A stretch of DNA of 64,000 nt, from contig CAYLRU010000008.1 in assembly GCA_964386565.1 (NCBI GenBank), positions 8,110 through 72,109 on the forward strand, written 5' to 3'. The stretch comes from an uncultured Desulfobacteraceae bacterium (GTDB lineage Bacteria > Desulfobacterota > Desulfobacteria > Desulfobacterales > UBA5616). Of this stretch, positions 10,696 through 26,574 are shown piece by piece (positions within the stretch are counted from its first letter, which is position 1; every line of letters begins with the position of its first letter). Position numbers and translations under genes: made by a program. Under the pieces are notes generated by a model. It had not been told where the DNA came from, made no database searches, and worked only from the letters and a program-made list of their open reading frames with translations.

Positions 10696-10854
10696 TTGAC
10701 AACACTTAAGATATTGTTTATAAATAAAAACAACTTCAGGCTGAAGCCTGAACCGAATATTCATTGCTGTCATGAAACCCACGCTGCCACGAAGGTAACC
10801 ATATCATGAAGATATGCGGATTTCGTGGTTTTTTTTTTGGAAACGGAGGATCAA
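10696..10854 (+). promoter_or_regulatory. promoter plus ~125-nt structured leader of the Ni/Co ECF transporter operon (candidate attenuator/riboswitch)
   Basis: TTGACA 10696-10701, 17-nt spacer, TATAAA 10719-10724. Hairpin TTCAGGC(10735-41)-tgaa-GCCTGAA(10746-52). Terminator at 10786-10838, then GGAGGA and ATG 10855. Confidence 0.55.
10786..10838 (+). terminator. intrinsic terminator inside the 5' leader, 6 nt upstream of the SD
   Basis: Outer stem CCACGAA(10787-93)/TTCGTGG(10822-28), inner stem CATATC/GATATG, followed by T10 (10829-10838). No plus-strand gene lies upstream for it to terminate. Confidence 0.65.
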
Positions 10855-11634
10855 ATGAAAAAAGGTTTATGTTTCAGTCTATCTTTGGTAGTTTTATCTT
10901 TATTATGCGTCTGTCCGGTCATGGCACACTACGGCATGATCATTGTCTCCGACACCATGGTGATGCAGGAGGACAATCGGACGGTCCACGTGGATCTCTC
11001 GTTTTCCCACCCGTTTGAACTCATCGGTATGGAACTGGAAAAGCCCAAAGTCTTTGGTGTGATGGCCAACGGTAAAAAACAGGATCTGCTGGAAACCCTG
11101 AAGCAAACCAAGGTAATGGATCATACGGCATGGACCGCAAATTATAAAATCAGACGACCGGGCATCTATATGTTTTACATGGAGCCGACCCCCTACTGGG
11201 AGCCGTCCGAGGATTGTTTTATTGTTCATTACACGAAAACCGTTGTGGCCGCCTTCGGGAACGACGAAGGGTGGGATGAACCAGTGGGATTGAAAACGGA
11301 AATCGTACCTGTTTCCAAACCCTTTGGGCTTTATGCGGGAAACGTATTCCAGGGTATGGTTCTGCTGGATGGAAACCCGGTACCCAACGCCGAGGTTGAG
11401 ATTGAATTTTACAACCAGCAGAAAAAATTCCAGGCACCCACGGACTATATGATCACCCAAACCATAAAGGCCGATCCCAACGGCATCTTCACCTATGCCC
11501 CCCCACAAGCAGGCTGGTGGGGATTTGCCGCGTTGAACACTGCTGATGAAAAAATACAACGAGACGGAAAAGACAAGGATGTGGAACTGGGCGCTGTTAT
11601 CTGGGTGAAATTTCACGAATTCAAAATGAAATAG
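10855..11634 (+). CDS. DUF4198-type periplasmic Ni/Co transporter component (NikK-like)
   Basis: ATG after GGAGGA; signal peptide MKKGLCFSLSLVVLSLLCVCPVMA-HYGMI. Size and position directly upstream of cbiM match the NikK/CbiK-type accessory component. Confidence 0.75.
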   Translation: MKKGLCFSLSLVVLSLLCVCPVMAHYGMIIVSDTMVMQEDNRTVHVDLSFSHPFELIGMELEKPKVFGVMANGKKQDLLETLKQTKVMDHTAWTANYKIRRPGIYMFYMEPTPYWEPSEDCFIVHYTKTVVAAFGNDEGWDEPVGLKTEIVPVSKPFGLYAGNVFQGMVLLDGNPVPNAEVEIEFYNQQKKFQAPTDYMITQTIKADPNGIFTYAPPQAGWWGFAALNTADEKIQRDGKDKDVELGAVIWVKFHEFKMK

Positions 11635-11645
11635 GAGACATCTCC

Positions 11646-12251
11646 ATGCATATTTCAGAAGGCGTATTGTCCGGTCCGGTCCTGATCTCCGGTTATGCAC
11701 TGGCAGCTGCCGGAACCGCCGTCGGACTGAAAAAACTGGATTACGAAAAAATCGCCCAGGTCGGTATTCTGGGGGCCTCGTTCTTTGTCGCGTCCCTGAT
11801 TCATGTTCCCATCGGCCCTGCAAACGTCCACCTGATTCTAAACGGTATTGTCGGGATGCTGCTGGGATGGGGGGCCTTCCCCGCCATCCTTGTAGCGTTG
11901 ACCCTTCAGGCTGTTTTGTTTCAATTCGGCGGCATCACCTCCCTTGGCGTCAATACGCTGACCATGGCAGCACCGGCAGTGGTCTGTTTTTACATGTTCG
12001 GATGGATCATCCGGAAAAAACCCGGTCTGGCCGGTATGGCCGCTTTTTTATGCGGGTTTACCGCCGTTTTTATGTCTGCAGTCATCGCCGGTGCCGCCCT
12101 GATGTTCACCGAAGAAAATTTCCTGAAGGTCGCAGCCCTCATTGTGGCGGCCCATCTTCCGGTCATGGTGGTGGAAGGATTGATCACGGCCTTTTGTGTT
12201 GAATTTTTAAGAAAAGTTCGTCCTGAGATACTGGCCATGCATTATTTATAA
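11646..12251 (+). CDS. cbiM: ECF transporter substrate-capture component CbiM/NikM
   Basis: Starts with the family hallmark MHISEGVL (Met1-His2 metal ligand). About 6 TM segments, 201 aa. Confidence 0.9.
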   Translation: MHISEGVLSGPVLISGYALAAAGTAVGLKKLDYEKIAQVGILGASFFVASLIHVPIGPANVHLILNGIVGMLLGWGAFPAILVALTLQAVLFQFGGITSLGVNTLTMAAPAVVCFYMFGWIIRKKPGLAGMAAFLCGFTAVFMSAVIAGAALMFTEENFLKVAALIVAAHLPVMVVEGLITAFCVEFLRKVRPEILAMHYL

Positions 12252-12299
12252 CTTTACCCGGCTTGGGCGTTTTTTGCAAAGAAATATGCCGGAATCCGT

Positions 12300-12983
12300 A
12301 TGTATGCGAAGAAAATCACCCAATCCGACTATACAATCATTGGAGAAAAAACCGTGGAAAACCGACTGTTCGGCAAAATATGCTTGTTATTTTTTGTGAC
12401 GGCATCCTTTTTCTCAATCACCTGCATCACTCCTGCCATGGCCCACAAGGTAACCGTGTTTGCCTGGGTGGAGGGCGACCAGGTGTTTACCGAAAGCAAA
12501 TTAAGCGGTGGAAAACGCGTTGCAGCGGGTGACATCACCGTTTACGATGCCTCCAACAACGTCCTTTTAAAAGGAAAAACCAATGACCAGGGAGAATTTT
12601 CATTTAAACTTCCACAAAAACCGCCCCTGATTATCGAGCTTAACGCCGGTATGGGACACCAGGCCAAATGGACCATTCAGCCGGATGACGTGGATGATGA
12701 TACCTTTCCAGCAGGCAATGATCCGGAAAAGGACATCATTGCCTCCGAACCGGTAAAAACAGCCCCGTCCGTGGACAGATCCGCGGAATTAAATACCGCG
12801 GATCTCGAAGCCGTGGTAGAAAGGGTCCTGGATAAAAAACTCAAACCCGTCATTCGATTGTTGGTGGATACCCGACAAAACGAACCGTCATTATCCGAAA
12901 TCATCGGCGGAATCGGCTATATCATGGGTATCGTGGGCATCATCGCCTATTTCCAAAGCCGGTCGCCGAAGCGGGACAAATAG
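12300..12983 (+). CDS. NikL-like nickel transport accessory protein (signal/TM - beta-sandwich - C-terminal TM)
   Basis: N-terminal hydrophobic segment ICLLFFVTASFFSITCITPAMA-HKV, a transthyretin/CarboxypepD_reg-like block (ITVYDASNNVLLKGKTNDQGEFSF) and a C-terminal TM (IIGGIGYIMGIVGIIAYF). Alternative start GTG 12354 after GGAG. Confidence 0.65.
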   Translation: MYAKKITQSDYTIIGEKTVENRLFGKICLLFFVTASFFSITCITPAMAHKVTVFAWVEGDQVFTESKLSGGKRVAAGDITVYDASNNVLLKGKTNDQGEFSFKLPQKPPLIIELNAGMGHQAKWTIQPDDVDDDTFPAGNDPEKDIIASEPVKTAPSVDRSAELNTADLEAVVERVLDKKLKPVIRLLVDTRQNEPSLSEIIGGIGYIMGIVGIIAYFQSRSPKRDK

Positions 12984-13014
12984 GGAACCGGCCCGAGAAA
13001 ACCGTTCATTAAAC

Positions 13015-13773
13015 ATGATCGAAGAATATTTTACTGAAGCAGGTACCCAGATCCACCGGCTGGATCCGCGGCTTCGAATCGTTTTTGCCACGGCCTACGC
13101 GTTTTCCGTGGCCCCTCTCCATCGATTCGAACCCATGTATGCAGCGGCGGTGTTGTCCCTGTTGATGGTCATCCTGTCCGGAGTGGGTATCGGGACTCTG
13201 GTGAAGCGCATGCTGGCCTTTAACGGTCTTGTTCTTCTGTTCTGGCTGGTGCTGCCCTTCACCTTTTCCGGTGAAGCCCTTTACAGTATCGGCCCGTTTA
13301 CCATCACCCGGCCCGGTGTTATCATGTCTGCAAAGATCACGCTGAAGGCCAACGCCATCATGCCGGCTTTCATTGTCATGATTTCAACGATCCCCGTTTC
13401 AGTCATGGGCCATGCCCTGGAAAAGCTTCATGTGCCGAAAAAAATCGTTCATATTCTTCTGTTGACTTACCGTTACATATTCGTGATAGAACAGGAATAT
13501 CAGCGGCTGAAGCGTGCCATAAAAACAAGGGGGTTTGTTCCCGGGACCAATATGCACACATACAAAACCTATGCATACCTCATCGGCATGATATTTGTCC
13601 GATCCCTGGACCGGGCCCAACGGGTGCATCAGGCCATGATCTGCCGCGGATTTTGCGGAAAATTTTTCTCCCTGAACCGATTTTCCTTGAAAAAAGCAGA
13701 CTATGCTTTTCTGCCGATCATGGCAGCCGCGATTATCGGACTGGAGGTGATGGAATGGATTCCGATCCGGTGA
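13015..13773 (+). CDS. cbiQ: ECF transporter transmembrane (T) component CbiQ
   Basis: 252-aa polytopic protein with the CbiQ/EcfT signature region (YRYIFVIEQEYQRLKRAIKTRGF). Sits between cbiM and cbiO. Confidence 0.88.
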   Translation: MIEEYFTEAGTQIHRLDPRLRIVFATAYAFSVAPLHRFEPMYAAAVLSLLMVILSGVGIGTLVKRMLAFNGLVLLFWLVLPFTFSGEALYSIGPFTITRPGVIMSAKITLKANAIMPAFIVMISTIPVSVMGHALEKLHVPKKIVHILLLTYRYIFVIEQEYQRLKRAIKTRGFVPGTNMHTYKTYAYLIGMIFVRSLDRAQRVHQAMICRGFCGKFFSLNRFSLKKADYAFLPIMAAAIIGLEVMEWIPIR

Positions 13774-14486
13774 TCATCCAACTGGAAAAGGTTAATTTCT
13801 CGTATCCCAACGGCCGGGTTGTACTTAAAGATACCGATTTTTCCCTCCGGACAGGCCAGAAAATCGGATTGATCGGCCACAACGGAAGCGGTAAATCCAC
13901 CTTCTTGCACATCCTGGTCGGGTTATTGAAAATATCCGGCGGTTCCATTCGCTTCTTCAGAGAACCGGTGGTATCTGAAAAAGATTTTCAAAAGGTCAGG
14001 CAGCACATCGGCCTGGTATTTCAGAATTCCGACGACCAGCTTTTCAGCCCAACGGTATTGGAAGACATTGCCTTTGGGTTGTTGAATCAGGGCAAAACAC
14101 CTGAAGAAGCCCGGGAAATATCCAGGAAACTGCTGACCGACCTCGACCTGAAAGATTTTGAAAACCGGGTCACCTACCGGCTGTCCGGCGGCGAAAAGCG
14201 GCTGGTAGCCCTGGCAACGGTTCTCGTCATGGAACCCCGGGTGCTGTTGCTGGATGAACCGTTTACCGGGCTGGACGAATACACCCGGGATCACATCATT
14301 GAAATCCTGAATCATCTGGATATCAGCTATATCATCGTGACCCATGAATACGACTCCCTGGTCCAGACCACCAGTGACATCTGCAGCATGGAGAATGGCA
14401 AAATCATTTATAACGGCGATTCATCCATGCTCCACAGCCATTTTCACCGGCACCCCGGGGGAACCGTCCACCATCATCACCGATAG
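13755..14486 (+). CDS. cbiO: ECF transporter ATPase CbiO with His-rich C-terminal tail
   Basis: ATG 13755 after GGAGGTGATGGA, overlapping the cbiQ end by 19 nt. Walker A GHNGSGKST, signature LSGGEKR, Walker B LLLDEP. Tail: HSHFHRHPGGTVHHHHR. Confidence 0.9.
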   Translation: MDSDPVIIQLEKVNFSYPNGRVVLKDTDFSLRTGQKIGLIGHNGSGKSTFLHILVGLLKISGGSIRFFREPVVSEKDFQKVRQHIGLVFQNSDDQLFSPTVLEDIAFGLLNQGKTPEEAREISRKLLTDLDLKDFENRVTYRLSGGEKRLVALATVLVMEPRVLLLDEPFTGLDEYTRDHIIEILNHLDISYIIVTHEYDSLVQTTSDICSMENGKIIYNGDSSMLHSHFHRHPGGTVHHHHR

Positions 14487-14494
14487 CGACACCG

Positions 14495-15421
14495 ATGACA
14501 GACGATATTCTTATTCAGCATCATTTCCTGTTTCAAAAAGGATTCTTTGAAAGGCACCCTTCCCTTTTTGATATCTATTTCCGCAATACCCCGAGAAAGC
14601 TGTACGACAAATTGGAAAAGACAAAAGCCGCCCTTACCGCCTATGAAGGAACCATTCAATGGCCGGCGATCAGGGGGCCGGGATTTTGCGGGGCCACCCA
14701 TCCCGGGGCCGGAAAAAGTTTTAACGGCTACATGACGGGCTGCTCCCCGTCTTTTTACAACAGCGACTGTCTTTATGTCCATCCGGGTCTGAACATTTTT
14801 GCCGTATCCGACCCCCCCGGGATCACCACAATCTCCCGAAAGCTTTTTGAAAAACTGGATGACCGGTTAAGAAAAACAACCACGGATAGACTTGATACTG
14901 TCATCAATGACCTGGCCGCCGGCATCCAGGAAAACGGGCCCACCCTGGCATTGATTCAATTTCAACAATACGGCATCTCCCGGACGCCAAACCGGGCATT
15001 TGTTTATATCGCCGGTGACACCGAAGTATACCGGGGAAACTTTAAAGGGGAAAAAATCAAACGGATTAACGGCAGCCCGCATTTCTGGGGAACTGCATGC
15101 CATGATTTAAAGCCCCGCGTGTTTGAATTGAACAGCAACGATTTTTTTCTTATCGTCAGTGACGGCATCAGCAGTCTGAGACAGACCGTTCCCGAGCATG
15201 GAATCGAAAAAATCCTTTGGGAACATATCATTCGTGATCCTGAAAAATTTGCCGAAAACGTCACCATGACCTGCAACCGGGTTTTTACCCAAAACAATAA
15301 CGGCAGATCCCGAACCCTGCTCGGCGGAACGGATGACATCACCGCCCTGCTAGTCGTCCCATCGGCGCTTGCCCAAATCCCTGTTGATAAAGGATACATA
15401 CTGGGAGGACACATCGGCTAA
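14495..15421 (+). CDS. PP2C/SpoIIE-family phosphatase-like protein
   Basis: Starts 8 nt after cbiO. Degenerate PP2C motifs FAVSDPPG, FFLIVSDGISS and GGTDDITALLV. Confidence 0.55.
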   Translation: MTDDILIQHHFLFQKGFFERHPSLFDIYFRNTPRKLYDKLEKTKAALTAYEGTIQWPAIRGPGFCGATHPGAGKSFNGYMTGCSPSFYNSDCLYVHPGLNIFAVSDPPGITTISRKLFEKLDDRLRKTTTDRLDTVINDLAAGIQENGPTLALIQFQQYGISRTPNRAFVYIAGDTEVYRGNFKGEKIKRINGSPHFWGTACHDLKPRVFELNSNDFFLIVSDGISSLRQTVPEHGIEKILWEHIIRDPEKFAENVTMTCNRVFTQNNNGRSRTLLGGTDDITALLVVPSALAQIPVDKGYILGGHIG

Positions 15422-15645: not shown

Positions 15646-16518
15646 TCATTGTCCCGGGTTCCAGACGTCCCTGAGGCTGTCCCCCAAAAGATTAAAGGCC
15701 AATACGGAAAGCATGATGGCAATTCCCGGATATACTGAAAGATGGGGTGCGCTTAAAATATAGTCTTTCCCTTCCATGAGCAACGTACCCCATTCCGGAT
15801 AGGGTGGCTGGACACCGAATCCCAAAAACCCAAGGGCCGATACGGCAATAATTGCCTTTGCCAGTCCGATGGTGGCAAGAACGATGACCGATCCGATGTT
15901 TGCCGGCAAGATATGGCGAAAAACAATAACAATTCTTGATACCCCTGAAAACTGCGCGACTTTTACATAATCCCGTTCCTTAACAGAAAGGGTAATCCCT
16001 CTGACAAGTCTGGCGTAACGCATCCAGCCGGTAATGGAAAGGGCAAAAATCAGATTAAATGTGCCCGGTCCCATTAGCCCTGCCAGTGTCATGGCAGCAA
16101 CTATCTCAGGAAGGGAAAGAAAAATATCGGCAATTCTCATGAGCAATTCATCCATGAGACCGCCCTGGTAGCCGGCAACCAACCCAACCATTACTCCCAA
16201 AAGGCAGGAAACCATCACCACAGAAACTCCCAGCCCTATGGACATGCGCGCACCAGACAAAATACGTGAAAAAAGACACCGGCCCAAGGCATCATTGCCC
16301 AGAGGATATTGCAGGCAAGGAGAAGCTAATCTTAAAGACAAATCTGTCTTCAGGGGATCATGGGGGGATAGCGCAGGCCCCAAGGCAGCTATAAAAAACA
16401 CCACGACTGCGATTACGGCCGCGCCTGAAATCAGGGGGTTTTTAATTACGGAGCGGTAAAATCTGCCCTGGATTTTTTCATATCCGGCATGCTCCCGCGA
16501 AAAATCATGAGCACTCAT
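15646..16518 (-). CDS. Opp/Dpp/Nik-type ABC transporter permease (DppC/NikC-like)
   Basis: 290-aa polytopic protein with the BPD_transp_1 EAA-type region. Overlaps the upstream permease by 4 nt. Confidence 0.9.
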   Translation of the reverse strand: MSAHDFSREHAGYEKIQGRFYRSVIKNPLISGAAVIAVVVFFIAALGPALSPHDPLKTDLSLRLASPCLQYPLGNDALGRCLFSRILSGARMSIGLGVSVVMVSCLLGVMVGLVAGYQGGLMDELLMRIADIFLSLPEIVAAMTLAGLMGPGTFNLIFALSITGWMRYARLVRGITLSVKERDYVKVAQFSGVSRIVIVFRHILPANIGSVIVLATIGLAKAIIAVSALGFLGFGVQPPYPEWGTLLMEGKDYILSAPHLSVYPGIAIMLSVLAFNLLGDSLRDVWNPGQ

Positions 16519-17453
16519 AATGGTCGAATCCGTGGATCCAGATATTGGTAGACAATATCCACAAAAAAATTAATCAGGACAAAAATCATAGCGGTAAAAA
16601 ACACCAGACCTTGTATCAAAGGATAATCCCTGTTGCTGACCGCATTGACCATCAGTTCCCCCAGCCCCGGCCATGCGAAAATGGTTTCCGTTATCACTGC
16701 TCCCTCAAGAATCATTCCCAATTCCAGCCCCACCACGGTAACTACAGGTATCATTGCATTTTTCAATATGTGACCTCCGAGCACGAGGCGGCTACTGACG
16801 CCTCTGGCGCGAAGGGCCAACAGGTATTCAGACTGCAAGGTTTCTGCGACGGCGGAACGCAAAATTCGTGTCGTATAGGCCGTCAGTGCGGTTCCCAGTG
16901 TTATGGCGGGCAAAACCAGATGCTGCCAATCCCCACGGCCAAAGCTTGGAAGCCAATGAAGTTTCACACAAAAAACAACAATGAGCACCAGCCCAAGCCA
17001 GTAATTGGGCATGGAAATACCGGTTACGGCAACCGCAACTCCGATTGAATCAAGCCATGTGCCTTGCCTGACGCCTGAAAGAATACCGATTGGCACGGAT
17101 ATGATCAGTGCAAGGAAAATGGCGGTTATGGCAAGATCAAAGGTACGGCTGAATCGAATGCTGATGAGTTCCCAAACAGGTACTTCCTCCACCAGTGATA
17201 TGCCAAAGTCAAGACGGACGACATGCTTCAACCAATGGAAATATTGCTGATAAAAAGGCTTGTCCAATCCTTCTTCCTGAATGATCCATTCAATGGTGGC
17301 CTGATCTACTAAACCTGGTTCTCCATAGCGGGCAATGGCTATCTCCAGGGGGGCGTCACCCGGTGCAAGCAGCATCATGGCGTAGGTAAAAAAAGTTGCG
17401 CCAATGAGGACAAAAATTGCGGTAACTATGCGCTTTGATATGAATCGTACCAT
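16515..17453 (-). CDS. Opp/Dpp/Nik-type ABC transporter permease (DppB/NikB-like)
   Basis: 312 aa with the typical DppB N-terminus (IVTAIFVLIGATFFTYAMMLLAPGDP) and C-terminus (IVYQYLDPRIR). Confidence 0.9.
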   Translation of the reverse strand: MVRFISKRIVTAIFVLIGATFFTYAMMLLAPGDAPLEIAIARYGEPGLVDQATIEWIIQEEGLDKPFYQQYFHWLKHVVRLDFGISLVEEVPVWELISIRFSRTFDLAITAIFLALIISVPIGILSGVRQGTWLDSIGVAVAVTGISMPNYWLGLVLIVVFCVKLHWLPSFGRGDWQHLVLPAITLGTALTAYTTRILRSAVAETLQSEYLLALRARGVSSRLVLGGHILKNAMIPVVTVVGLELGMILEGAVITETIFAWPGLGELMVNAVSNRDYPLIQGLVFFTAMIFVLINFFVDIVYQYLDPRIRPL

Positions 17454-17477
17454 TCAAACATTTTTCTATAACTGACG

Positions 17478-19277
17478 TTAATCTAAATGACAAAAAATCT
17501 CATGTTCGCACGTGATATTTCTTTTTAACGGCGCGATTTTTTCGCATACCGAGAGCCGTCGGGGGCATCTTGAGTGAAATATACAGCCGGATGGCGGGTC
17601 ATAAGGAGACGGAATCTCCCCTTCAAGAACGATCCGTTTATCCTGCCATAGGCCGGGTTTTAGTGCATTTGACAAAAGGGCCTGTGAATATGGATGGCGA
17701 GCGGAGGAAAAAAAGATTTCCACCGGGGCCTTTTCAACGATTCTTCCCAGATACATTACAGCCACGGTTGTGCCGATGTCTTTGACAAGGCCGAGGTCGT
17801 GGGTAATGAGAAAACAGGTCAGGCCATGCCGCCTTTTCAGCCTGTAAAGCAGCTTCGCCATGTCTTTTTGGTTCACAGCATCCAGAGCGCTCAGGGGTTC
17901 GTCGAGAAATAAAAGATCGGGGCCGGTTGAAAGGGCACGGGCGATACATGCTCTTTGATTCTGACCCACCGATACTCTCCCGGGTGGTTGCTGAAGCAAA
18001 GAGTATGAAAGCCCCACTTCCGCTGCCAATCTTTTGACAATCTTTTCCCTCTCTTTCTTCTTAACACCCCTGGCATGTAACGGCTCCATAATAGACTGTC
18101 CCAAGGAAAGATAGGGGCTTAAAGAAGCAACCGGATCCTGGAAGACCACCTGGGACTTGGATTTCATCCTTTGATGGACCGGATCGCCGGGCCGCCTGAC
18201 GGGTTGACCATCGAAAATCATCTCACCTTCCTGATACGGACAGAATCCTAGCATGGCGTTTATCAGGGTTGTCTTTCCGGAACCGCTTTCACCTATCAGG
18301 CAAAAGATCTCTTCACGGCGGACATCCAGACTGATATTCCTTACGGCATAAAATGAACGATGGGAAAAGAGCGTTTCGGCCCTAAGCGTGAATTGAACGG
18401 AAAAGTTGCGGATGGAAATGGCGGAAGCTGTCTCCGGTTTTTCATACCTGTTCCCGACTTGTTCAGACATACCTGAAACAAGCCGCCGGGTATATGGATG
18501 TGACGGTCGGAAAACTATTTCACGCGCTGCCCCGTTTTCCACGATATGGCCCTTGTGCATCACCGCTACCCGGTCACATACCTCCAGGGCAACTGAGAGG
18601 TCGTGGGTGATAAAGATGATTCCGGTGCCATAACGTTTTTTTAAAAGGGCGATTAACTGGATGATCTGCACGGTAATCGTAGGATCAAGGGCCGATGTAA
18701 CTTCATCCAGTATCACGACTTCCGGCCTGGTGGAAAATGCCATTTGTAACTGGGCACGTTGCAGCATCCCCCGGCTCCATTGATGGGGATACTGCCGACA
18801 CCGTTCTTCCGGTGAAGCAATGCCAACCGTTTGGAGAAGGTCATTTATTTTTTGATTTTCCCTTTCCTGTTTTCTCCATCTACGCTTTTTTAAGCCGGAG
18901 CGAACCGACAGAACATCTTTGAATTGGTTACCCACTGTAAAGACCGGGTCCATCGCGCTTTTGGGATTTTGCAGCACCAGGGATATCTTACGTCCCCTGA
19001 AATACTGCATCTTTTGCTGACTTTGCGTGGTGAGCTCTTGACCACCCAGAACAATGGAACCGGAAACAATTTTTCCCGGGTATTCCAGCCGTACAAGGGT
19101 CCTGGCAAAAACGCTTTTCCCGCAACCGGATTCCCCCACAAGGCCGAGAATTTCACCCCGGTTAAGCGAGAGACATAGACCATCGAGAACCCTTGGACCG
19201 GTCGCCCTGCCTGGTAAATCGACAACCAGGTTTTTCACCTTAAGAATTGGATTCGCTGCTGTCGCGCGTTGATACAT
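17478..19277 (-). CDS. fused double ATPase of Opp/Dpp/Nik-type ABC transporter (DppD-DppF fusion)
   Basis: 599 aa with two nucleotide-binding domains: Walker A GESGCGKS and GESGSGKT, two signature/Walker B sets (ILDEVTSALD, LFLDEPLSALD). Confidence 0.9.
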   Translation of the reverse strand: MYQRATAANPILKVKNLVVDLPGRATGPRVLDGLCLSLNRGEILGLVGESGCGKSVFARTLVRLEYPGKIVSGSIVLGGQELTTQSQQKMQYFRGRKISLVLQNPKSAMDPVFTVGNQFKDVLSVRSGLKKRRWRKQERENQKINDLLQTVGIASPEERCRQYPHQWSRGMLQRAQLQMAFSTRPEVVILDEVTSALDPTITVQIIQLIALLKKRYGTGIIFITHDLSVALEVCDRVAVMHKGHIVENGAAREIVFRPSHPYTRRLVSGMSEQVGNRYEKPETASAISIRNFSVQFTLRAETLFSHRSFYAVRNISLDVRREEIFCLIGESGSGKTTLINAMLGFCPYQEGEMIFDGQPVRRPGDPVHQRMKSKSQVVFQDPVASLSPYLSLGQSIMEPLHARGVKKKEREKIVKRLAAEVGLSYSLLQQPPGRVSVGQNQRACIARALSTGPDLLFLDEPLSALDAVNQKDMAKLLYRLKRRHGLTCFLITHDLGLVKDIGTTVAVMYLGRIVEKAPVEIFFSSARHPYSQALLSNALKPGLWQDKRIVLEGEIPSPYDPPSGCIFHSRCPRRLSVCEKIAPLKRNITCEHEIFCHLD

Positions 19278-19317
19278 TTTTCAGCACCTGCCGTTTTTGC
19301 ACCGGGTGGTTGAGAAT

Positions 19318-20904
19318 TCATTTTCGATAGATCTCGGGGGTCAGAAGGAATTTCTCCGCCGGATGAATCCGGTAGTTTTGCACATAATTATAGGCGACGG
19401 ATACCATTGATTTGTAAAACAGCACAATCACAGGACTGTCGTCATAGATAATTTCCTGAATCCGGTCATAAATTATTTTGCGCTTTTTAGGGTCAAAAGT
19501 GACTTTTCCTTTTCTCGCCAATTCGTCCAGTTCCGAGTTGTGGTATCCCATACAGTTTGACCCGGCCTGGCCGGTAAAAACATTGGAGATGAAAAAATCA
19601 GGGTCACCTTCAGGAGCAACGTTCCACATCTGCAAATTTAAATGAACCTCGCCTTTTCTCATGGCCCTGCTGATAGGTGATCCCCTTTGGGTAATTTTCA
19701 GCTTTGTAATGATGCCCACCCTATGCAATTGTGCCTGTATCAATTCAAGGACCGGTTTTAACGATGCACGTCCTTCATAGGTCCACATATTCAGTAACAA
19801 CGGCCGGCCGGCCATTTCCAATATCCCGTCTCCGTCACTGTCTTTGGCGCCGGCCTCAGCCAAAAGCTTTAATGCTTTGTCAGGGTCATAAGGATACGGT
19901 TTCAGGTTACGGTTACCCCAGGGAATGGTTCCAGGAAAAACTGACGCGCCGACTTGTCCCCCCACGCCGCCAAGAACCGTATCAACAATCTCCTGTCGAT
20001 TGATGGCATGGTTGATGGCCTTTCGGACACGGGAATCGGCAAGAGGGCCGTCTGCAATCCTTACAAAAAAAAAGCAAAGCCGATTGGTGGGTTCGTGATA
20101 GATTCGGACGTCTTTTCGCGATGCCATGCGCTTTACATCATTTTCAGGAAAATTTGTCACCACATCCAATTGTCCGGCTTCAAACGCCAGCATCCGCGTT
20201 GAAGGGTTCCTGATGATTTTCAGATGAACTTTTGCAAGCTTTGCCCTGCCCCCCCAATAACCGTCAAATCGGGACACAATCATCTCTTCCTTTGGAATCA
20301 CCTTGTCCAATACAAACGGGCCGGTGCCGTAAATTCTTTCTTTACTGCTCCCGGGGCTGACAATCCCTGTCCCAGGTGATGTTAAATAATATAAAAACGC
20401 AGCATTGGGCTTATGGGTTTCAAATACCAGGATATCGTTATCCTTAACGGTGATGTTTTTGATATCCAGCATTTTCTGTATCCGTATATTGAACACCTCG
20501 CTTTTTTTATCAATAATACGGTCAATGGACCATTTAACGGCTCTGGCGTTTAAGGGTGTATTGTCATGAAACCGGATCCCATTTTTTAATTTGATCTCCC
20601 AGATTAAAGGACTGAGGTTTTTGGATGCAGCCACGAGCCAGGGCCTTAAATTCATTTCAAAGTCAAGCACAAAGAGCGTTTCGGTCACTCCGGCCTCGTT
20701 GGTGTACCAACCGTTGGCCCCTTTGGCCGGATCAGGACATTTTACGGATGGGCCAAAAGGTTTGGCAATGATCAGTTTGTCCGGTCCGGCTGCAAAAACA
20801 CCGGTAGCAAATAATTCCAGTGAAAACAGAAGGATCAGTATAACAGCCAGACCAATCTCCCTATCTTCTTGCATGCGCAATAAAGAATGCCGGTTTTTTT
20901 TCAT
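19318..20904 (-). CDS. family 5 (DppA/NikA-type) ABC substrate-binding protein
   Basis: SBP_bac_5-like sequence across about 500 aa. Signal peptide after MKKNRHSLLRMQEDRE-IGLAVILILLFSLELFATGVFA. The start is ambiguous (20904, 20874, or up to 21051); every option overlaps the methyltransferase 3' end. Confidence 0.85.
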   Translation of the reverse strand: MKKNRHSLLRMQEDREIGLAVILILLFSLELFATGVFAAGPDKLIIAKPFGPSVKCPDPAKGANGWYTNEAGVTETLFVLDFEMNLRPWLVAASKNLSPLIWEIKLKNGIRFHDNTPLNARAVKWSIDRIIDKKSEVFNIRIQKMLDIKNITVKDNDILVFETHKPNAAFLYYLTSPGTGIVSPGSSKERIYGTGPFVLDKVIPKEEMIVSRFDGYWGGRAKLAKVHLKIIRNPSTRMLAFEAGQLDVVTNFPENDVKRMASRKDVRIYHEPTNRLCFFFVRIADGPLADSRVRKAINHAINRQEIVDTVLGGVGGQVGASVFPGTIPWGNRNLKPYPYDPDKALKLLAEAGAKDSDGDGILEMAGRPLLLNMWTYEGRASLKPVLELIQAQLHRVGIITKLKITQRGSPISRAMRKGEVHLNLQMWNVAPEGDPDFFISNVFTGQAGSNCMGYHNSELDELARKGKVTFDPKKRKIIYDRIQEIIYDDSPVIVLFYKSMVSVAYNYVQNYRIHPAEKFLLTPEIYRK

Positions 20905-21601
20905 TCTGTTTTTTGCCCCCATAAGGATTAAAGCCAACGCGAGATGTATCATAAGATCGAATCTCTTTAAAACGGGCAGCATGCAAAAGCATGCTGGCCT
21001 TTTCAAAGCAAATGCCTTCATAAAATGGAAGCGACTTTTGCAGACCGGCATAGCTTCGGAAAAAACGAAGGAAAATCATACTGCGGTTCCGGCGCATCCC
21101 TTTGAGCAATTTGAAAGCCAAATGATGAATACGCTTCCAAGTGGTATTCATCCATAACCCGTCGGATACTATCAAGATGCCTTCTGGTTTCAAAATCCGC
21201 CGCCATTCTTCAAGTGCTTTATCGGGATGCGGAAGCGTCCACAACAAATTCCGGGAAACCACCACATCAAAAGTGCTGTCACCGAACGCAAGCGCCTCGG
21301 CGTCTCCGATCTGAAAATCGATATCAAGCCCTTGATTTGCTGCATATTGCCCGGCAATGAAAAGCATGTTTTCGGCCAGATCGATACCCGTCACGTTGAA
21401 ACCGGCACGGGCGAGATATACGGCAAACTGTCCGGTCCCGGTTCCGATATCCAGCGCGCGCCTTCCGGGAGCCCCTGGAGCCAGTTCTTTTAAAATGGAT
21501 TCCCAGTTCTTGGCTATTGCAATCGACTTGTCCGTATCATGGCCGTAACTTCTGCTTCTCCAGTTCCAGTAATTTTTAATCGAAGCTTTTACCCTGTCCA
21601 T
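20861..21601 (-). CDS. class I SAM-dependent methyltransferase
   Basis: SAM-binding motif I ALDIGTGTGQFAVYLARAGFNVTGIDLAENML, then the acidic post-I and motif II region (GDAEALAFGDSTFDVVVS). Confidence 0.85.
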   Translation of the reverse strand: MDRVKASIKNYWNWRSRSYGHDTDKSIAIAKNWESILKELAPGAPGRRALDIGTGTGQFAVYLARAGFNVTGIDLAENMLFIAGQYAANQGLDIDFQIGDAEALAFGDSTFDVVVSRNLLWTLPHPDKALEEWRRILKPEGILIVSDGLWMNTTWKRIHHLAFKLLKGMRRNRSMIFLRFFRSYAGLQKSLPFYEGICFEKASMLLHAARFKEIRSYDTSRVGFNPYGGKKQNEKKPAFFIAHARR

Positions 21602-21704
21602 ATAGATCCTCTCAAAAAGCTAACCGATGCAGTTACCACCGGCAGATGCATTCCGCCCATAGAGGCTGCATCGGTAATGTCAAATCCGGGTCACACCATG
21701 GTCT

Positions 21705-24020
21705 TTAGTAGCAAACGCTCACCGTACCGAGCCAAAATCGGCCGGGGGCACGGTAGTATTCATAGTATTTTTCATCAAAAAGATTGTCCACGGAAAGGGA
21801 GAGTGCGATATGGTCCATCGGCCTGGCAGTTATCTTGGCGTCTACAATATGGTATTCGTCATCTGCTCTGTATGTTGTGTCCGCATATTGGGCATATTCA
21901 TCATCGTATCTGCTGTCACAATATCTATAGCTGATGCTCGCATCCAGGTAACGGCCGAAATAGCCAAGCCAGAGGCTCCACATGTCCGTGGGCGTCTCAT
22001 TCACTTCCCATCCCAGCTTGGAAGAAACTTGCGTTTTCGTATATTCGGACCAGTTATGCGCATAAAACAGACCGGCCTTCATATTGTGGGGCAGAAGGGC
22101 TTCAATCGAGGCCTCGATACCGTTTACCTCGGCCTCTTCGGCATTGACCCGCTTTTTCTCTGTTACCTGGGTTCCGTCCGCAAGGGTATAAGTTGTTGTT
22201 TGATTTACGATCAGGTCCTTAAAATCATTTTCAAAATAGGTTGCCTTGACCCGGATGCGCTTTTCCCAGAATTCCCATTCCGTACCGATCTCCCAGGATT
22301 TATTGGTCGTGGGGCCAAGGTCGGGATTCGGATCGGCCATGGAAATGGTTCCGCCGCCTTCCCAATAGTAGCTTGCGGTTCTGTAATACAGGGAAGGTGC
22401 GGTAAATGCTTCGCCATACGACGCCCGAACTGTACCGTTCTCAAATGGACGATACACCAACGACACTTTGGGGCTGAACTTTCCGTCATCCGTGTCCGGG
22501 TATTCGATATTACTTCCGTCAATATTGGAATAGTCTGCATCAGTACCCCACCAATGGTCGTAGCGGCCGCCCAGATAGGCAGTCAAATGGTCTGCAGGTG
22601 AATACTCCACCTGGATGAATGTTCCCAGCGTACGGTTTTTGCCTGAAGTCTCTTCCCTGACGGATACAGTGCTGTCTTTGTCGTAAGGATCGGAAAGGTT
22701 ATTGTCCGTGACCGTGGCCTCTTCCTGAACGCCTTGAATTCCCACCGTAACCAGGCATTTGTCGTTCAAATAATGAAATGTGGCTGCCAGATCGGCCTGG
22801 GCAAGGTAATTGTCTTCCACCTTATACCGGCTGTTGCTGATATTATGGGTCGCACTTTCCTTATCGTTGAAAGCGAGAAGACCAACGATATCTACCGAGT
22901 CGGGTATTGAGTGATTGAAACGCAGGGTGTGGACCATGGATTCTTTTGTTTTCGGGTTCGAAGTAAAATTAAACGGGCTCAATGTTGTTGTGTATGTGTT
23001 TCCCCCATCCTGAATATAGACATCGCCTTCATAGAGGGTTGTTCCGGATGAATTCTTCAGAAAGCTCTTCCCGTCCTTCCAACCGTATTCGAATTCGCTG
23101 ATATTGAGGCTGTACCATAACCGGGTATTGGGGGCGAAGTCATAACCTGTTTTAAAAAACAGGCCGTGGTCTTCATACCAGTTGTCGCCCTGATGACCGA
23201 TCTTGTAGCGATCATTTCCGGTTTGCGGATCAACATCCTTTTCCCAGCCTGTTACTATCGGGATATTGGGATCAAGCACACCTGTAACGGGGGTGTTCAG
23301 GCTTTTGTAAGAAGGAGTCGTGACATAGCCGTCCGAACTACGCGATTTGAAACTGAACGAGTAAAAAAAACGGTCGCCAAGGATGGTGGGGTCAAACCAG
23401 AAACTCCGTTTCCTGCCACCATTTTTCTTTCCAAAAGGTCGATCGGCAAATCTGAAACTGTAAAAATGGCTGTTCCAGTTGCCGTAAGAAGCCGAGGCAT
23501 CTATCTCCGCATCTTCCGGTATTTTTGTTGTATAATTAATAACGCCGGTCTGGGCCAACGTTCCGTATAGCGCGGAAAACGGCCCTCTGACCACGTCAAT
23601 TCTTTCCACATCCGGCATCGGTATGGCACCGGTATGCGAATAGTAGCCGTAATCGTACCAATTGACCCCGTCAACCTGAACAAGGGCTCTTTGGCTGCGG
23701 ATAACAGGCCGGGCCCAATAGTCCGCCAGCCCCCGGTACTGCCTTGGCCAGATCCCTTCCGTCAGGACAAGCGGTTTAAAGGGGTGCTCGGAATTAAAGG
23801 CCTTTATTTCATCTTCCGTAATGACGGAAACGCTTGCCGGAGCATCTATCGGCGCTTTTGGTGTTCTTGTTGCCATAACCGTTATGGGTTCAAGTTGGTA
23901 CGGTTCGGCATCATGTCTGACCGTCGACTGGTGGCCGGCGTCTTCTGTCTCAGCCCACACCGGTTGACAAATAAAAAAGATCATTGCCGCTGCAAAACAC
24001 AATATCGATTTCAACTTCAT
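21705..24020 (-). CDS. TonB-dependent outer-membrane receptor
   Basis: ATG 24020 after GGAGGAGG; signal peptide MKLKSILCFAAAMIFFICQPVWA. Plug-domain motifs (EPITVMATR, VVRGPFSALYG), a long beta-barrel and an aromatic C-terminus. Confidence 0.92.
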   Translation of the reverse strand: MKLKSILCFAAAMIFFICQPVWAETEDAGHQSTVRHDAEPYQLEPITVMATRTPKAPIDAPASVSVITEDEIKAFNSEHPFKPLVLTEGIWPRQYRGLADYWARPVIRSQRALVQVDGVNWYDYGYYSHTGAIPMPDVERIDVVRGPFSALYGTLAQTGVINYTTKIPEDAEIDASASYGNWNSHFYSFRFADRPFGKKNGGRKRSFWFDPTILGDRFFYSFSFKSRSSDGYVTTPSYKSLNTPVTGVLDPNIPIVTGWEKDVDPQTGNDRYKIGHQGDNWYEDHGLFFKTGYDFAPNTRLWYSLNISEFEYGWKDGKSFLKNSSGTTLYEGDVYIQDGGNTYTTTLSPFNFTSNPKTKESMVHTLRFNHSIPDSVDIVGLLAFNDKESATHNISNSRYKVEDNYLAQADLAATFHYLNDKCLVTVGIQGVQEEATVTDNNLSDPYDKDSTVSVREETSGKNRTLGTFIQVEYSPADHLTAYLGGRYDHWWGTDADYSNIDGSNIEYPDTDDGKFSPKVSLVYRPFENGTVRASYGEAFTAPSLYYRTASYYWEGGGTISMADPNPDLGPTTNKSWEIGTEWEFWEKRIRVKATYFENDFKDLIVNQTTTYTLADGTQVTEKKRVNAEEAEVNGIEASIEALLPHNMKAGLFYAHNWSEYTKTQVSSKLGWEVNETPTDMWSLWLGYFGRYLDASISYRYCDSRYDDEYAQYADTTYRADDEYHIVDAKITARPMDHIALSLSVDNLFDEKYYEYYRAPGRFWLGTVSVCY

Positions 24021-24228
24021 TTCAAATCCTCCTCCAAATAAAAAAGCCACGAAGTCGCTCTCCTTTCCGGGAGCACAGACCTTCGTGGCCTTTTGTTCAG
24101 GCTCTTTATATTGTTTCCGCCGATATACGGCGACATGACTTTTGGCTTTGCCCTGAAATTAAACCGTTTGCGACTTCTGCCGCAGATTAAGAAAGAATTT
24201 TTTTACTTGATATTTTCCGGGAAGTCAA
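24021..24228 (-). promoter_or_regulatory. promoter plus ~170-nt structured leader of the TonB-receptor/ABC operon (candidate attenuator/riboswitch, related to 10696-10854)
   Basis: Read on the minus strand: TTGACT (24228-24223), 17-nt spacer, TAAAAA (24205-24200). TTCAGGGC (24157-24150) can pair with GCCTGAA (24102-24096). Internal hairpin CGCCG-tatat-CGGCG (24132-24118). Terminator at 24089-24036, then GGAGGAGG (24035-24028) and ATG 24020. Confidence 0.55.
24036..24089 (-). terminator. intrinsic terminator inside the 5' leader, abutting the SD
   Basis: 5' arm GCCACGAAGGTC and 3' arm GACTTCGTGGC (one bulged G), with an inner GCTCC/GGAG(A)GC stem, followed by TTTTTTATTT and then directly GGAGGAGG. 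Confidence 0.65.
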
Positions 24229-24960: not shown

Positions 24961-26574
24961 ATGTTTTGTTATCAGTGCGAACAAACGGCAAAGGGTCAGG
25001 GATGTGATAAAATCGGCGTATGCGGCAAAAAACCCGATGTGGCCGCTCTGCAGGACCTGCTGCTGTATGCGGTTAAGGGGCTGTGCCAGTATGCGGTGGA
25101 AGGCCGGAAAAAGGGAATCCGGGATGCAAAGACCAACCAGTTTATCTGCGAGGCCATTTTCTCCACATTGACGAACGTCAATTTCGATCCGGAACGGTTT
25201 GTCGACCTGATCAATGAATGTGCCCGGTTACGGGATGAATTAAAAGGAAAAACCGGTGCTGAAATTTCCGGTGGAGCAGCGACATTCGTGCCGGAAGACT
25301 CGATGGATGCCCTGGTTGCCCAGGGAGAAAAGGTGGGTATTAAGTCTGACCCCGAGATAGATCCGGACATCCAGTCGCTGAAACAGTTGCTCACTTACAG
25401 TATCAAGGGTGTTGCCGCCTACGCGGACCATGCAGCCATATTGGGGCAGGCCGACGATGCCGTGTACGATTTCATCCAGGACGGTATGGTTGCTACGCTG
25501 GATACGGAAATTGGTGTGGATGACCTTATCGGACTGGTGCTCAAGTCCGGCGAGATCAACTTAAGGGCCATGGAACTGCTGGATACCGGCAATACCGGAG
25601 CCTATGGGCATCCCGTCCCCACAAAGGTGCCCCTGTACCCGAAAGCGGGAAAAGCCATCCTGGTGTCCGGCCATGACCTCAAAGACCTGGATGAAGTCCT
25701 GAGACAGACCGAGGGTAAGGGAATCAACGTTTATACCCATGGTGAAATGCTGCCCTGTCACGGATATCCCGAATTGAAGAAGTATCCCCATTTTTGGGGT
25801 CATTACGGAACGGCCTGGCAAAACCAGGCAAGGGAATTCGACGAATTCCCCGGAGCGATCATCATGACCACCAACTGCATCCAGAAACCCAGGGAGACTT
25901 ACCGGGACAATATCTTTACCACCGGCCTGGTGGGATGGCCCGGGGTCAGACATATTGCGGACAAAAATTTTGCACCGGCCATCGATAAAGCTCTGGAAAT
26001 GGAAGGCTTTAAGGAAGACGGTCAGGGCAAGTCCGTCATGGTGGGATTCGCCCACAATGCCGTCATGGGTGTGGCCGGACAGATAATCGAGGCGGTGAAA
26101 AATAAAAACATCCGTCATTTCTTCCTGGTGGGCGGATGCGACGGCGCCAAGCCCGGCCGAAGCTATTACACGGAATTCGTCGAGAAAATTCCCAAGGATT
26201 GCGTGGTGCTGACCCTCGCCTGCGGTAAATTCCGGTTTTTTGACAAGGATCTGGGCGATATCGGCGGCATTCCCCGGCTTTTGGATGTGGGGCAGTGCAA
26301 CGATGCTTACTCCGCCGTTCAGATTGCCGTTGCCCTGGCAAATGCATTTGAATGCGACGTAAACGACCTGCCGCTCTCCATGATCATTTCCTGGTATGAA
26401 CAAAAGGCCGTGGCGATCCTGCTGACCCTGCTCTACCTGGGGATCAAGGATATCCGGCTCGGCCCCAGCCTGCCGGCATTTATTTCGCCCAACGTACTGA
26501 ATGTGCTGGTTGAAAAATTCAACATCATGCCGGTAAGCACCCCGGATGAGGATCTAAAGGCAATATTGGGATAG
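24961..26574 (+). CDS. hcp: hybrid cluster protein (hydroxylamine reductase)
   Basis: N-terminal MFCYQCEQTAKGQGCDKIGVCGK Cys motif; 537 aa collinear with class I Hcp. AAAGGAGG SD upstream. Confidence 0.97.
   Translation: MFCYQCEQTAKGQGCDKIGVCGKKPDVAALQDLLLYAVKGLCQYAVEGRKKGIRDAKTNQFICEAIFSTLTNVNFDPERFVDLINECARLRDELKGKTGAEISGGAATFVPEDSMDALVAQGEKVGIKSDPEIDPDIQSLKQLLTYSIKGVAAYADHAAILGQADDAVYDFIQDGMVATLDTEIGVDDLIGLVLKSGEINLRAMELLDTGNTGAYGHPVPTKVPLYPKAGKAILVSGHDLKDLDEVLRQTEGKGINVYTHGEMLPCHGYPELKKYPHFWGHYGTAWQNQAREFDEFPGAIIMTTNCIQKPRETYRDNIFTTGLVGWPGVRHIADKNFAPAIDKALEMEGFKEDGQGKSVMVGFAHNAVMGVAGQIIEAVKNKNIRHFFLVGGCDGAKPGRSYYTEFVEKIPKDCVVLTLACGKFRFFDKDLGDIGGIPRLLDVGQCNDAYSAVQIAVALANAFECDVNDLPLSMIISWYEQKAVAILLTLLYLGIKDIRLGPSLPAFISPNVLNVLVEKFNIMPVSTPDEDLKAILG

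Follow-up and report, generated by a model that had tools for sequence, protein, structure and literature searches.

A conserved terminator-containing leader, probably a transcription attenuator, upstream of nickel uptake genes in Desulfobacterales, Nitrospirota and Clostridia

Background

The control of bacterial nickel import is textbook territory of the regulator NikR. Its targets are importers of the nikKMLQO, nikMNQO and nikABCDE types, its operator in delta-proteobacteria reads GTGTTAC-N13/14-GTAACAC, and NikK-NikM-NikL-NikQ-NikO has been defined as a nickel energy-coupling factor (ECF) importer (Rodionov et al., PMC545781). At the RNA level, the NiCo (czcD) riboswitch (RF02683), which binds metal directly through a four-way junction and turns efflux genes on, is the sole nickel/cobalt RNA element covered in a metallostasis review of December 2024, with its metal selectivity being disputed (PMC11672702). 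In the targets of the ANTAR proteins EutV, NasR and AmiR, a dimeric protein binds like loops and blocks terminator formation, the target consensus being two hairpins with six-nt loops in which the first nucleotide is A and the fourth is G (PMC8934654). Here we describe an RNA element found twice in a 64,000 nt stretch of DNA (the window; assembly GCA_964386565.1, contig CAYLRU010000008.1, positions 8,110 to 72,109) of an uncultured Desulfobacteraceae bacterium, upstream of a nickel ECF importer operon (leader A) and, on the other strand, of an operon starting with a TonB-dependent receptor gene (leader B). Leader A is very probably a member of a conserved family of transcription attenuators serving a nickel regulon. 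Terminator-based attenuators are a known kind of element, and it is the family, its signal and possibly a protein partner that are new.

Results and discussion

Leaders A and B share a promoter-to-terminator layout

Rereading of the window located the promoter, the non-coding leader of ~125 nt, the strong terminator and the Shine-Dalgarno (SD) sequence with its ATG at the positions given in an earlier note on this DNA. Leader A (+ strand) begins with a σ70-type promoter, read directly from the sequence (TTGACA at 10696–10701, a 17-nt spacer and TATAAA at 10719–10724), and TTGACA-type promoters also lie 10–20 nt upstream of the first hairpin in orthologous leaders of relatives. This first hairpin (P1, 10735–10752) is predicted by RNA folding to have a perfect stem of 7 bp, UUCAGGC-UGAA-GCCUGAA, in which 10735–10741 pairs with 10746–10752. 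It is followed by a variable, A/U-rich and G-poor linker of ~33 unstructured nt without conserved sequence (10753–10785), and then by the 5′ arm of the terminator, GCCACGAAGGU (10786–10796), which was delimited by sequence and alignment, has the core CCACGAAGG and could alternatively fold on itself as GCC-ACGAA-GGU. The terminator is capped by an apical hairpin (P2, CAUAUC-AUGAA-GAUAUG, 10800–10805 paired with 10811–10816) with an AUGAA loop, of which all 5 pairs covary, and closes with the 3′ arm UUUCGUGG (10821–10828), as indicated by folding and by compensatory arm changes in relatives (for example CCAUG/CAUGG and CCAGG/CCUGG). With a folding energy of −17.3 kcal/mol and U10 directly behind it (10829–10838), this hairpin has the properties of an intrinsic terminator. 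The SD sequence GGAGGA (10845–10850) and the ATG of nikK (10855) were again read directly, leader A contains no open reading frame (ORF) of ≥80 aa, and the upstream argS gene is divergent according to Pfam, as the note had stated.

Leader B (24036–24228, − strand) was delimited by sequence, folding and the covariance model R1 described below. It starts with the promoter TTGACT (24228–24223), a 17-nt spacer and TAAAAA (24205–24200), as read from the sequence, and its terminator consists of the 5′ arm GCCACGAAGGU (24089–24079), an inner hairpin (24074–24057), the 3′ arm CUUCGUGGC (24054–24046) and the U-rich tract U6-A-U3 (24045–24036), followed by the SD sequence of operon B (24035–24027) and its first ATG (24020). 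At −23.7 kcal/mol and with U6AU3 behind it, this hairpin likewise has the properties of an intrinsic terminator. That the TonB-receptor operon has a collinear leader, as the note had claimed, was confirmed by the common 11-mer GCCACGAAGGT in the 5′ arm, the 3′ arm, the U-run, the SD sequence and the ATG. Its claim of a common TTCAGGC/GCCTGAA helix is borne out as a local hairpin in leader A only, since in leader B the pairing of UUCAGG (24157–24152) with CCUGAA (24101–24096) spans ~60 nt and the local hairpin GGC-AAA-GCC (24152–24144) is an alternative. The 11-mer occurs only in these two leaders within the window, and as two or more copies were obtained in 22/100 shuffles, it is not significant on its own. 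Leaders A and B are both recognised by the model made from orthologous leaders (E 5e-11 and 4e-6), leader B at 24038–24160 with 58 bits, and their likeness is far beyond chance.

The element is conserved and its helices covary

Covariance model R1 was made from a seed of 20 orthologous leaders (A2), and covariation was assessed on an alignment of 87 sequences from three phyla (A5). NikK orthologues were present in 40/61 relatives, most of them with the same leader upstream. In A5, 91% of the paired cells were compatible with pairing, versus 70.5% in shuffles and 36–46% in slid controls, double-sided changes were seen in 20/22 pairs, and all 7 pairs of P1 had such changes. The top mutual-information pairs all belong to P1, P2 or the terminator, and the search for pseudoknots or long-range tertiary pairs, by mutual information with average product correction (APC), gave none beyond these three helices. 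The note had named conserved and covarying blocks ahead of orthologous operons as the test of a shared RNA, and both properties are strongly evident in the R1 matches and the A5 pairing.

The consensus of P1 is a stem of 5–8 bp that is free to vary, with an NGAA or ANGAA loop and usually a C-G closing pair. The linker ranges from 28 to 89 nt (mean 39 nt, n = 101 members) and contains 44% A and 11.5% G, and in these 101 members it has no enriched CGAA-type word or other conserved word. Repeats of CACGAA in the linker were considered as possible decoys, and are present in few members (loci L027, L121 and L178) without overall enrichment. The 5′ arm of the terminator is the most constrained in its sequence, with CC in 87/87, and A-C-G-A-A-G-G each kept in 75–86/87, the A, A, G and G of its end in 81–86/87. 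Its C and the A before it covary with their 3′ partners, and AAGG is kept despite mismatched 3′ partners in 14–21 of the 87 sequences, so that some constraint beyond the terminator acts on GAAGG.

The genes behind the element point to nickel

In 95 copies from Desulfobacterales, the first gene behind the element encoded NikK/DUF4198 (61), CbiM or CbiM-PDGLE (9), a TonB receptor (6), DUF3842 (4), a NikA-like solute-binding protein (3), Peripla_BP_2 (3) or a Phenol_MetA_deg channel (3), and the rest comprised FmdE with a zinc ribbon, a porin resembling OprB and a few others. Downstream genes in Clostridia and Nitrospirota were NikB/NikA operons, a methyltransferase with NikA, CbiM-PDGLE, an ECF S component, LarE-like with LarB (AIRC), and FmdE with FecCD. 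The terminator is located 6–25 nt from the SD sequence of the nickel gene, on the same strand. As annotated, the common denominator of these genes is nickel acquisition and use, and the proposal of the note that a terminator-containing regulatory leader is common to two metal importers is supported; the Lar genes, which belong to the nickel-pincer cofactor, favour nickel over cobalt.

The genes for a LarE-like PP-loop protein and a LarB-like (AIRC) protein were seen behind the motif in a Ruminococcaceae locus (L167, 1168–1938 and 372–1151) and in another clostridial genome (L263, 1643–2392). In two phyla (L114, 1771–2376; L265, 934–1455 with 2–937; L269, 952–1476), the motif precedes a gene for an FmdE-domain protein bearing a C4 zinc ribbon and then one for a permease of the FecCD type, and FmdE plus FecCD may represent a candidate nickel uptake system that has not been recognised as such.

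Within the order, model R1 detected one or more copies (at most 6) in 106/151 genomes, and it also matched 11 genomes outside the order in a sample of the phylum (n = 151). The genome of the window itself has 3 copies, the third being at a contig end (L034, 24–143, − strand, on G000:C27), with P1 ACAGUC-AUGAA-GACUGU and arm ACCACGAAGGG; the contig breaks off before the gene downstream of this copy. A pattern scan of GTDB species genomes (CCACGAAGG, N12–42, TCGTGGYTTTTTT) gave, among the matches listed, mainly metagenome-assembled genomes (MAGs) of Desulfobacterales and Desulfoluna butyratoxydans, next to Desulfobaccales, Syntrophobacteraceae, Thermodesulfovibrio and Nitrospira, as well as Clostridia including Clostridium sp. 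D53t1 and Ruminococcaceae. The matches outside the order (Nitrospirota, Clostridia and others) also carry P1, and one clostridial model match, upstream of minC (L268), is probably false. The relatives counted in these comparisons are phylogenetically non-independent, so that p-values from cross-genome counts are overstated.

Tandem or clustered copies were observed at L099 (101–207 and 878–973), L106 (101–208 and 258–364) and L131 (three matches), the order at L099 being motif, DUF3842 gene, second motif and nikK. In a Clostridia MAG (L159), a cobalamin riboswitch (181–370, 123.7 bits) and, ~250 nt further on, a weakly matching copy of the element (623–719, 28.6 bits, + strand) both precede CbiM-PDGLE, which may represent dual control by B12 and nickel/cobalt.

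The element is complementary to NikR and matches no described RNA family

We did not find a gene with a NikR_C domain in the genome of the window, which is 96.8% complete, nor a NikR-type operator in leaders A and B, where the best sites had 4–5 mismatches out of 14 against a window background of 3. Within the order, NikR_C was present in 3/151 genomes, compared to 72/151 across the phylum, and in one of the three carriers (G032) nikR adjoins nikK and the motif was not found. In the phylum sample, NikR was present in 2/14 genomes with the motif versus 70/137 of the others, and in the clostridial sample NikR_C gave marginal matches only (22–29 bits). By these gene and motif searches, the motif and NikR are complementary at the level of lineages. 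In a genome with neither motif nor DUF3842 (G033), the nikK leader (L016, ~1320–1400) holds a different long hairpin, with repeated CACGAAGAU and CCUUCGUG words.

At gathering thresholds, none of the 4,227 models of Rfam 15 matched anywhere in the window, consistent with the claim that the leader belongs to no recognised riboswitch class, and at E up to 10 both leaders gave only unrelated low-scoring noise. None of the cobalamin (RF00174), NiCo (RF02683) and Moco (RF01055) models attained its gathering score in the window, and 17 loci from other phyla had no Rfam family match at the motif. RF00174 finds four cobalamin riboswitches elsewhere in the same genome, which confirms that the search works. 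Control by a cobalamin riboswitch or by NikR, neither of which the note could see here, is accordingly absent from window and leaders as far as these searches reach: the window has no cobalamin riboswitch, the genome no detected NikR_C and the leaders no operator. Literature searches, with subscription journals outside their coverage, retrieved no described nickel-uptake RNA element, no such motif and no function for DUF3842.

Two other types of leader were considered and rejected. Leader-peptide attenuation was set aside since relatives have AGG, AAG, ACG or AUA in place of the AUG of the P2 loop, and no conserved leader ORF or SD sequence was seen in the alignment of leaders. A DNA operator at the P1 palindrome was discarded since P1 covaries instead of keeping its sequence, and its halves in leader B are 60 nt apart.

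Genes of operons A and B

Operon A (10855–15421, + strand) was annotated using Pfam, with gene names after PMC545781. It encodes NikK (DUF4198, 10855–11634), NikM (CbiM, 11646–12251), a small Ig-like protein resembling NikL (12300–12983), CbiQ (13015–13773) and an ABC ATPase (listed ORF 13653–14486, with the true start probably downstream of the CbiQ stop), and by its gene order is a NikKMLQO-type nickel ECF importer. The last gene is an ORF of 308 aa (14495–15421) without a match in Pfam or, by sequence, in the PDB; its language-model features resemble PP2C/SpoIIE phosphatases, which we note as a lead only.

Operon B (15646–24035, − strand), also annotated with Pfam, encodes the TonB-dependent receptor (24020–21705), an S-adenosylmethionine (SAM) methyltransferase (21601–20861), a NikA-like SBP_bac_5 protein (21051–19318), a fused ABC ATPase (19277–17478) and two permeases (17453–16515 and 16518–15646). 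Genes for a class I SAM methyltransferase are repeatedly found immediately downstream of the motif or next to that of a NikA-like protein in Desulfobacterales, Clostridia and Nitrospira (window 20861–21601, − strand; L152, 2226–3563; L153, 737–1540; L209, 6385–7131). A Prismane-family gene (hybrid-cluster protein/CO dehydrogenase family, 537 aa) is located at 24961–26574 (+ strand), ~0.7 kb from operon B on its upstream side and on the opposite strand.

Proposed antitermination by a trans-acting factor and the case for a riboswitch

The constrained core of the 5′ arm, CC-ACGAA-GG, can fold on itself as a mini-hairpin (Px) with an ANGAA loop and C-G closure, as in P1. The pairs of Px are 94% pairable, its outer pair is GC in 38, GU in 22, AU in 17 and other in 8 sequences, and the outer pair has 18 double-change cells versus 7.1 ± 6.1 in shuffles, which is modest covariation. 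In Clostridia, the word of the 5′ arm recurs in P1 itself, which reads C-ACGAA-G, and members of the nikK type have a third copy of the loop (C-AUGAA-G) in P2, a hairpin that is variable or missing in the TonB and solute-binding protein types. P1 and the terminator arm, as aligned, share the loop word (A)NGAA-G.

The earlier note had suggested that the four strands TTCAGGC/GCCTGAA and GCCACGAA/TTCGTGG swap partners, but the strand-swap duplexes (−4.1 and −2.0 kcal/mol) are energetically uncompetitive with the native helices (−9.7 and −12.1 kcal/mol) and the sequence of the P1 stem is not conserved. Free covariation in the P1 stem contrasts with an invariant terminator arm, so P1 and the arm cannot be conserved swap partners, and this suggestion was abandoned.

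For the mechanism of switching, we lean slightly towards antitermination by a trans-acting factor over a direct riboswitch. Px has an energy of −2 to −3 kcal/mol (−2.1 kcal/mol in leader A) and the terminator −17 to −24 kcal/mol, so by RNA energetics alone the terminator out-competes Px and the default state would be termination. In this default state the terminator would form and transcription would stop before the nickel genes. A trans-acting factor, probably dimeric or oligomeric, would recognise the like loops of P1 and Px (and of P2 where present), and when bound would keep the 5′ arm off the 3′ arm during passage of the polymerase over the U-tract, resulting in read-through. Px would form only when the terminator stem is open. 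Both the signal, nickel, and the direction of switching are what we infer: the factor would bind at low nickel and release at sufficient nickel, since importers need this direction for homeostasis. The presence of two to three copies of one loop word, one of them exposed only with an open terminator, together with a linker of free length, would fit a trans-acting oligomeric binder. The account as a whole, an attenuator family that controls a nickel acquisition regulon in lineages without NikR by means of a trans-acting antiterminator, has in our estimate an even chance of being correct.

Two observations on the RNA weigh against this account. Px has only 3–4 bp, and its covariation is confounded as the outer base also pairs in the terminator. 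Furthermore, a rarer, class-2 variant upstream of nikK orthologues (L005, L011, L018 and L021) has the arm CCGCAAAC or CCGCAUAC rather than CCACGAAGG, while retaining P1 and an apical hairpin GGUAUU-AUGAA-AAUACC, and such a variant without ACGAAGG in the arm yet with the GAA loop in P2 is unexplained by sequestration of Px alone.

A true riboswitch, in which Ni2+, Co2+ or a small molecule related to nickel (such as a precursor of the nickel-pincer cofactor) is bound by the RNA directly and the bound state chooses between terminator and read-through, is the best of the alternatives, although we consider it rather unlikely. Riboswitches are classically recognised by such a combination of a strongly conserved, covarying leader, an embedded terminator and downstream genes of a single pathway, here seen in three phyla. 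As in ON-type riboswitches, conserved positions coincide in part with the 5′ arm of the terminator, tandem copies occur (L099, L106 and L131), and a protein partner for the RNA is at candidate level only. In nikK-type members the GAAGG of the arm is opposite UUUUC, and the resulting tandem G-U pairs are of a kind known to bind metals. However, the RNA lacks a junction or internal loop whose conserved nucleotides might form a pocket, the conserved modules are separated by an unstructured linker of 28–89 nt, no long-range covariation or pseudoknot signal was detected, and the conserved parts are two to three copies of one small hairpin loop, as is typical for the sites of oligomeric binders. As an RNA antiterminator is lacking, an OFF switch made of RNA alone would have no ON state to start from, and stabilisation of P1/Px by Ni2+ would act with the wrong sign, turning the importers on when nickel is in excess. 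The motif is also almost restricted to genomes that carry DUF3842.

DUF3842 as candidate partner

If a trans-acting factor is involved, DUF3842 is the leading candidate because of its co-occurrence with the motif in three samples, its frequent adjacency and its homodimer model. In the order sample (n = 151), motif and DUF3842 were both present in 99 genomes, the motif only in 7, DUF3842 only in 21 and neither in 24, so that DUF3842 was found in 99/106 motif genomes versus 21/45 others; four of the seven genomes with the motif only are below 80% complete. Seven of the families (f1–f30) lacked the motif and seven lacked DUF3842, with six of these being the same families. DUF3842 was present in 14/14 motif genomes versus 44/137 others of the phylum sample, and in 10/10 match genomes (9 of these with credible nickel contexts) versus 37/136 others of a clostridial order sample. 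It was anticorrelated with NikR in the phylum sample (both in 9 genomes, DUF3842 only in 49, NikR only in 63 and neither in 30).

With regard to location, DUF3842 is encoded in 14/120 loci (≤8 kb) around the pattern matches listed, directly downstream of the motif in at least 9 genomes, and in Clostridium sp. D53t1 divergently from hypB-motif-nikB. A census found DUF3842 in 1,887/36,145 genera, nearly all of them anaerobes (Clostridia, Desulfotomaculia, Desulfobacteria and Thermodesulfovibrionia), and CbiM was encoded within 10 kb of DUF3842 in 18/300 carriers versus <3 at random (0/6, <3/42, <3/42 and 18/207 by likeness band). The AlphaFold2 model of the 143-aa protein is confident, with a predicted local distance difference test score (pLDDT) of 94.9. 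The homodimer model scored 0.66 versus 0.00 for the best control, a mark that was reached by 20/30 solved homo-pairs and 1/23 single chains, and its runs agreed in ≥96% of contacts at pLDDT ≥91. Fold searches gave only generic Rossmann-like matches (Foldseek template modelling (TM) score 0.5 or less; VIA Z 9.4 or less, with tied rows) and a PDB sequence search was empty, and as the matches are only generic we draw no function from the fold.

Several observations argue against DUF3842 as the antiterminator. The glycine-rich loop in the modelled small Rossmann-like fold suggests binding of a nucleotide or cofactor, the fold searches revealed no resemblance to known RNA-binding antiterminators, and by its count of K/R versus D/E the protein (P0002) is not basic. 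The only DUF3842 gene of the genome of the window is behind a gene read as parB-like and away from nickel genes, DUF3842 was present without a motif match in 21 genomes of the order sample and 44 of the phylum sample, and the co-occurrence counts are not phylogenetically independent. DUF3842 could also be merely a nickel-related member of the regulon. We therefore present DUF3842 as the trans-acting factor as a doubtful lead and not as a finding. At the locus in question (L140, 545–1926, on G000:C27), the DUF3842 gene (1495–1926) overlaps the stop codon of the gene that reads as parB-like, and in several complete clostridial chromosomes DUF3842 is encoded within the first 10–55 kb of the record.

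These reservations lend some weight to another protein as the factor, acting by antitermination or by promoting termination, with DUF3842 as a nickel-handling or housekeeping bystander that shares lineage and regulon. Its fold is generic and nucleotide-binding-like, its main genomic place is behind a parB-like gene, many carriers have no detectable motif, and a position downstream of the motif is expected of a plain regulon member. Such a bystander role is still improbable to us, because the motif genomes are a near-subset of the DUF3842 carriers in three samples, one of these from a different phylum, DUF3842 is anticorrelated with NikR, its divergent position from the controlled operon in clostridia is the usual one for a regulator, and a dimer model suits a target with two hairpins. 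That the leader is unregulated, being a constitutive leaky terminator or a small RNA gene that by chance precedes nickel genes, is very improbable: its architecture does resemble that of Hfq-type small RNAs (5′ hairpin, A/U-rich linker and terminator with U tail) and a terminated product of ~105 nt would arise anyway, but it is fixed at 6–25 nt before the SD sequence of the nickel gene on the same strand, with no space for a second promoter, a plain terminator needs neither an invariant 5′ arm nor a conserved upstream hairpin loop, and its distribution is complementary to NikR.

The widest proposal that we derive from these data falls a little short of an even chance: element and DUF3842 would form a nickel-sensing system that acts after initiation, in which DUF3842 as RNA-binding antiterminator reads the (A)NGAA loops and replaces NikR in Desulfobacteria, Thermodesulfovibrionia and many Clostridia, or else the RNA alone would be the first nickel-uptake riboswitch. 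Most of an environmentally dominant order of sulfate reducers, together with Nitrospirota and gut and soil Clostridia, appears to be under one RNA element, with NikKMLQO, NikMNQO, NikABCDE, TonB receptors and even the genes for the nickel-pincer cofactor as apparent targets, and if this is true the element fills the gap left by the missing NikR. It may further serve as a compact marker for the annotation of nickel transporters, among them unassigned ones such as FmdE plus FecCD, NikA-linked methyltransferases and outer membrane channels, and offers a first functional handle on DUF3842, a family without assigned function.

Comparison with known systems

The element most resembles the dual hexaloop targets of ANTAR proteins, as it has a constitutive first hairpin and a similar second one buried in the 5′ arm of the terminator, and the proposed logic, in which a dimer on like loops prevents the terminator, is the same. 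It differs from these targets in its loops, which are NGAA or ANGAA of 4–5 nt rather than hexaloops, closed by C-G and present in P1, Px and P2, in the distance of 28–89 nt between its hairpins, which are adjacent in ANTAR targets, and in the third copy at the tip of the terminator in the nikK type and the nickel-uptake regulon. Since loops and spacing differ, we do not consider the element a member of the ANTAR-target family; a search with PF03861 gave no match in the genome of the window, nor in the control genomes. As with HutP and TRAP, small oligomeric proteins that read a repeated short purine-rich word and decide between terminator and read-through (see also PMC3064811), a short word is repeated, but their words are single-stranded UAG or GAG repeats, whereas the word of the element is located in hairpin loops, and DUF3842 had no fold similarity to HutP or TRAP in the searches made. 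With the NiCo riboswitch the element shares that it is a cis-acting RNA linked to nickel/cobalt homeostasis in anaerobes and acting on transcription, but it consists of two simple hairpins, precedes importers and has no Rfam match. Finally, the element would control the same importer targets as NikR; the latter, a ribbon-helix-helix protein, binds DNA and works at the initiation step, while control by the element would be placed after initiation, at the terminator.

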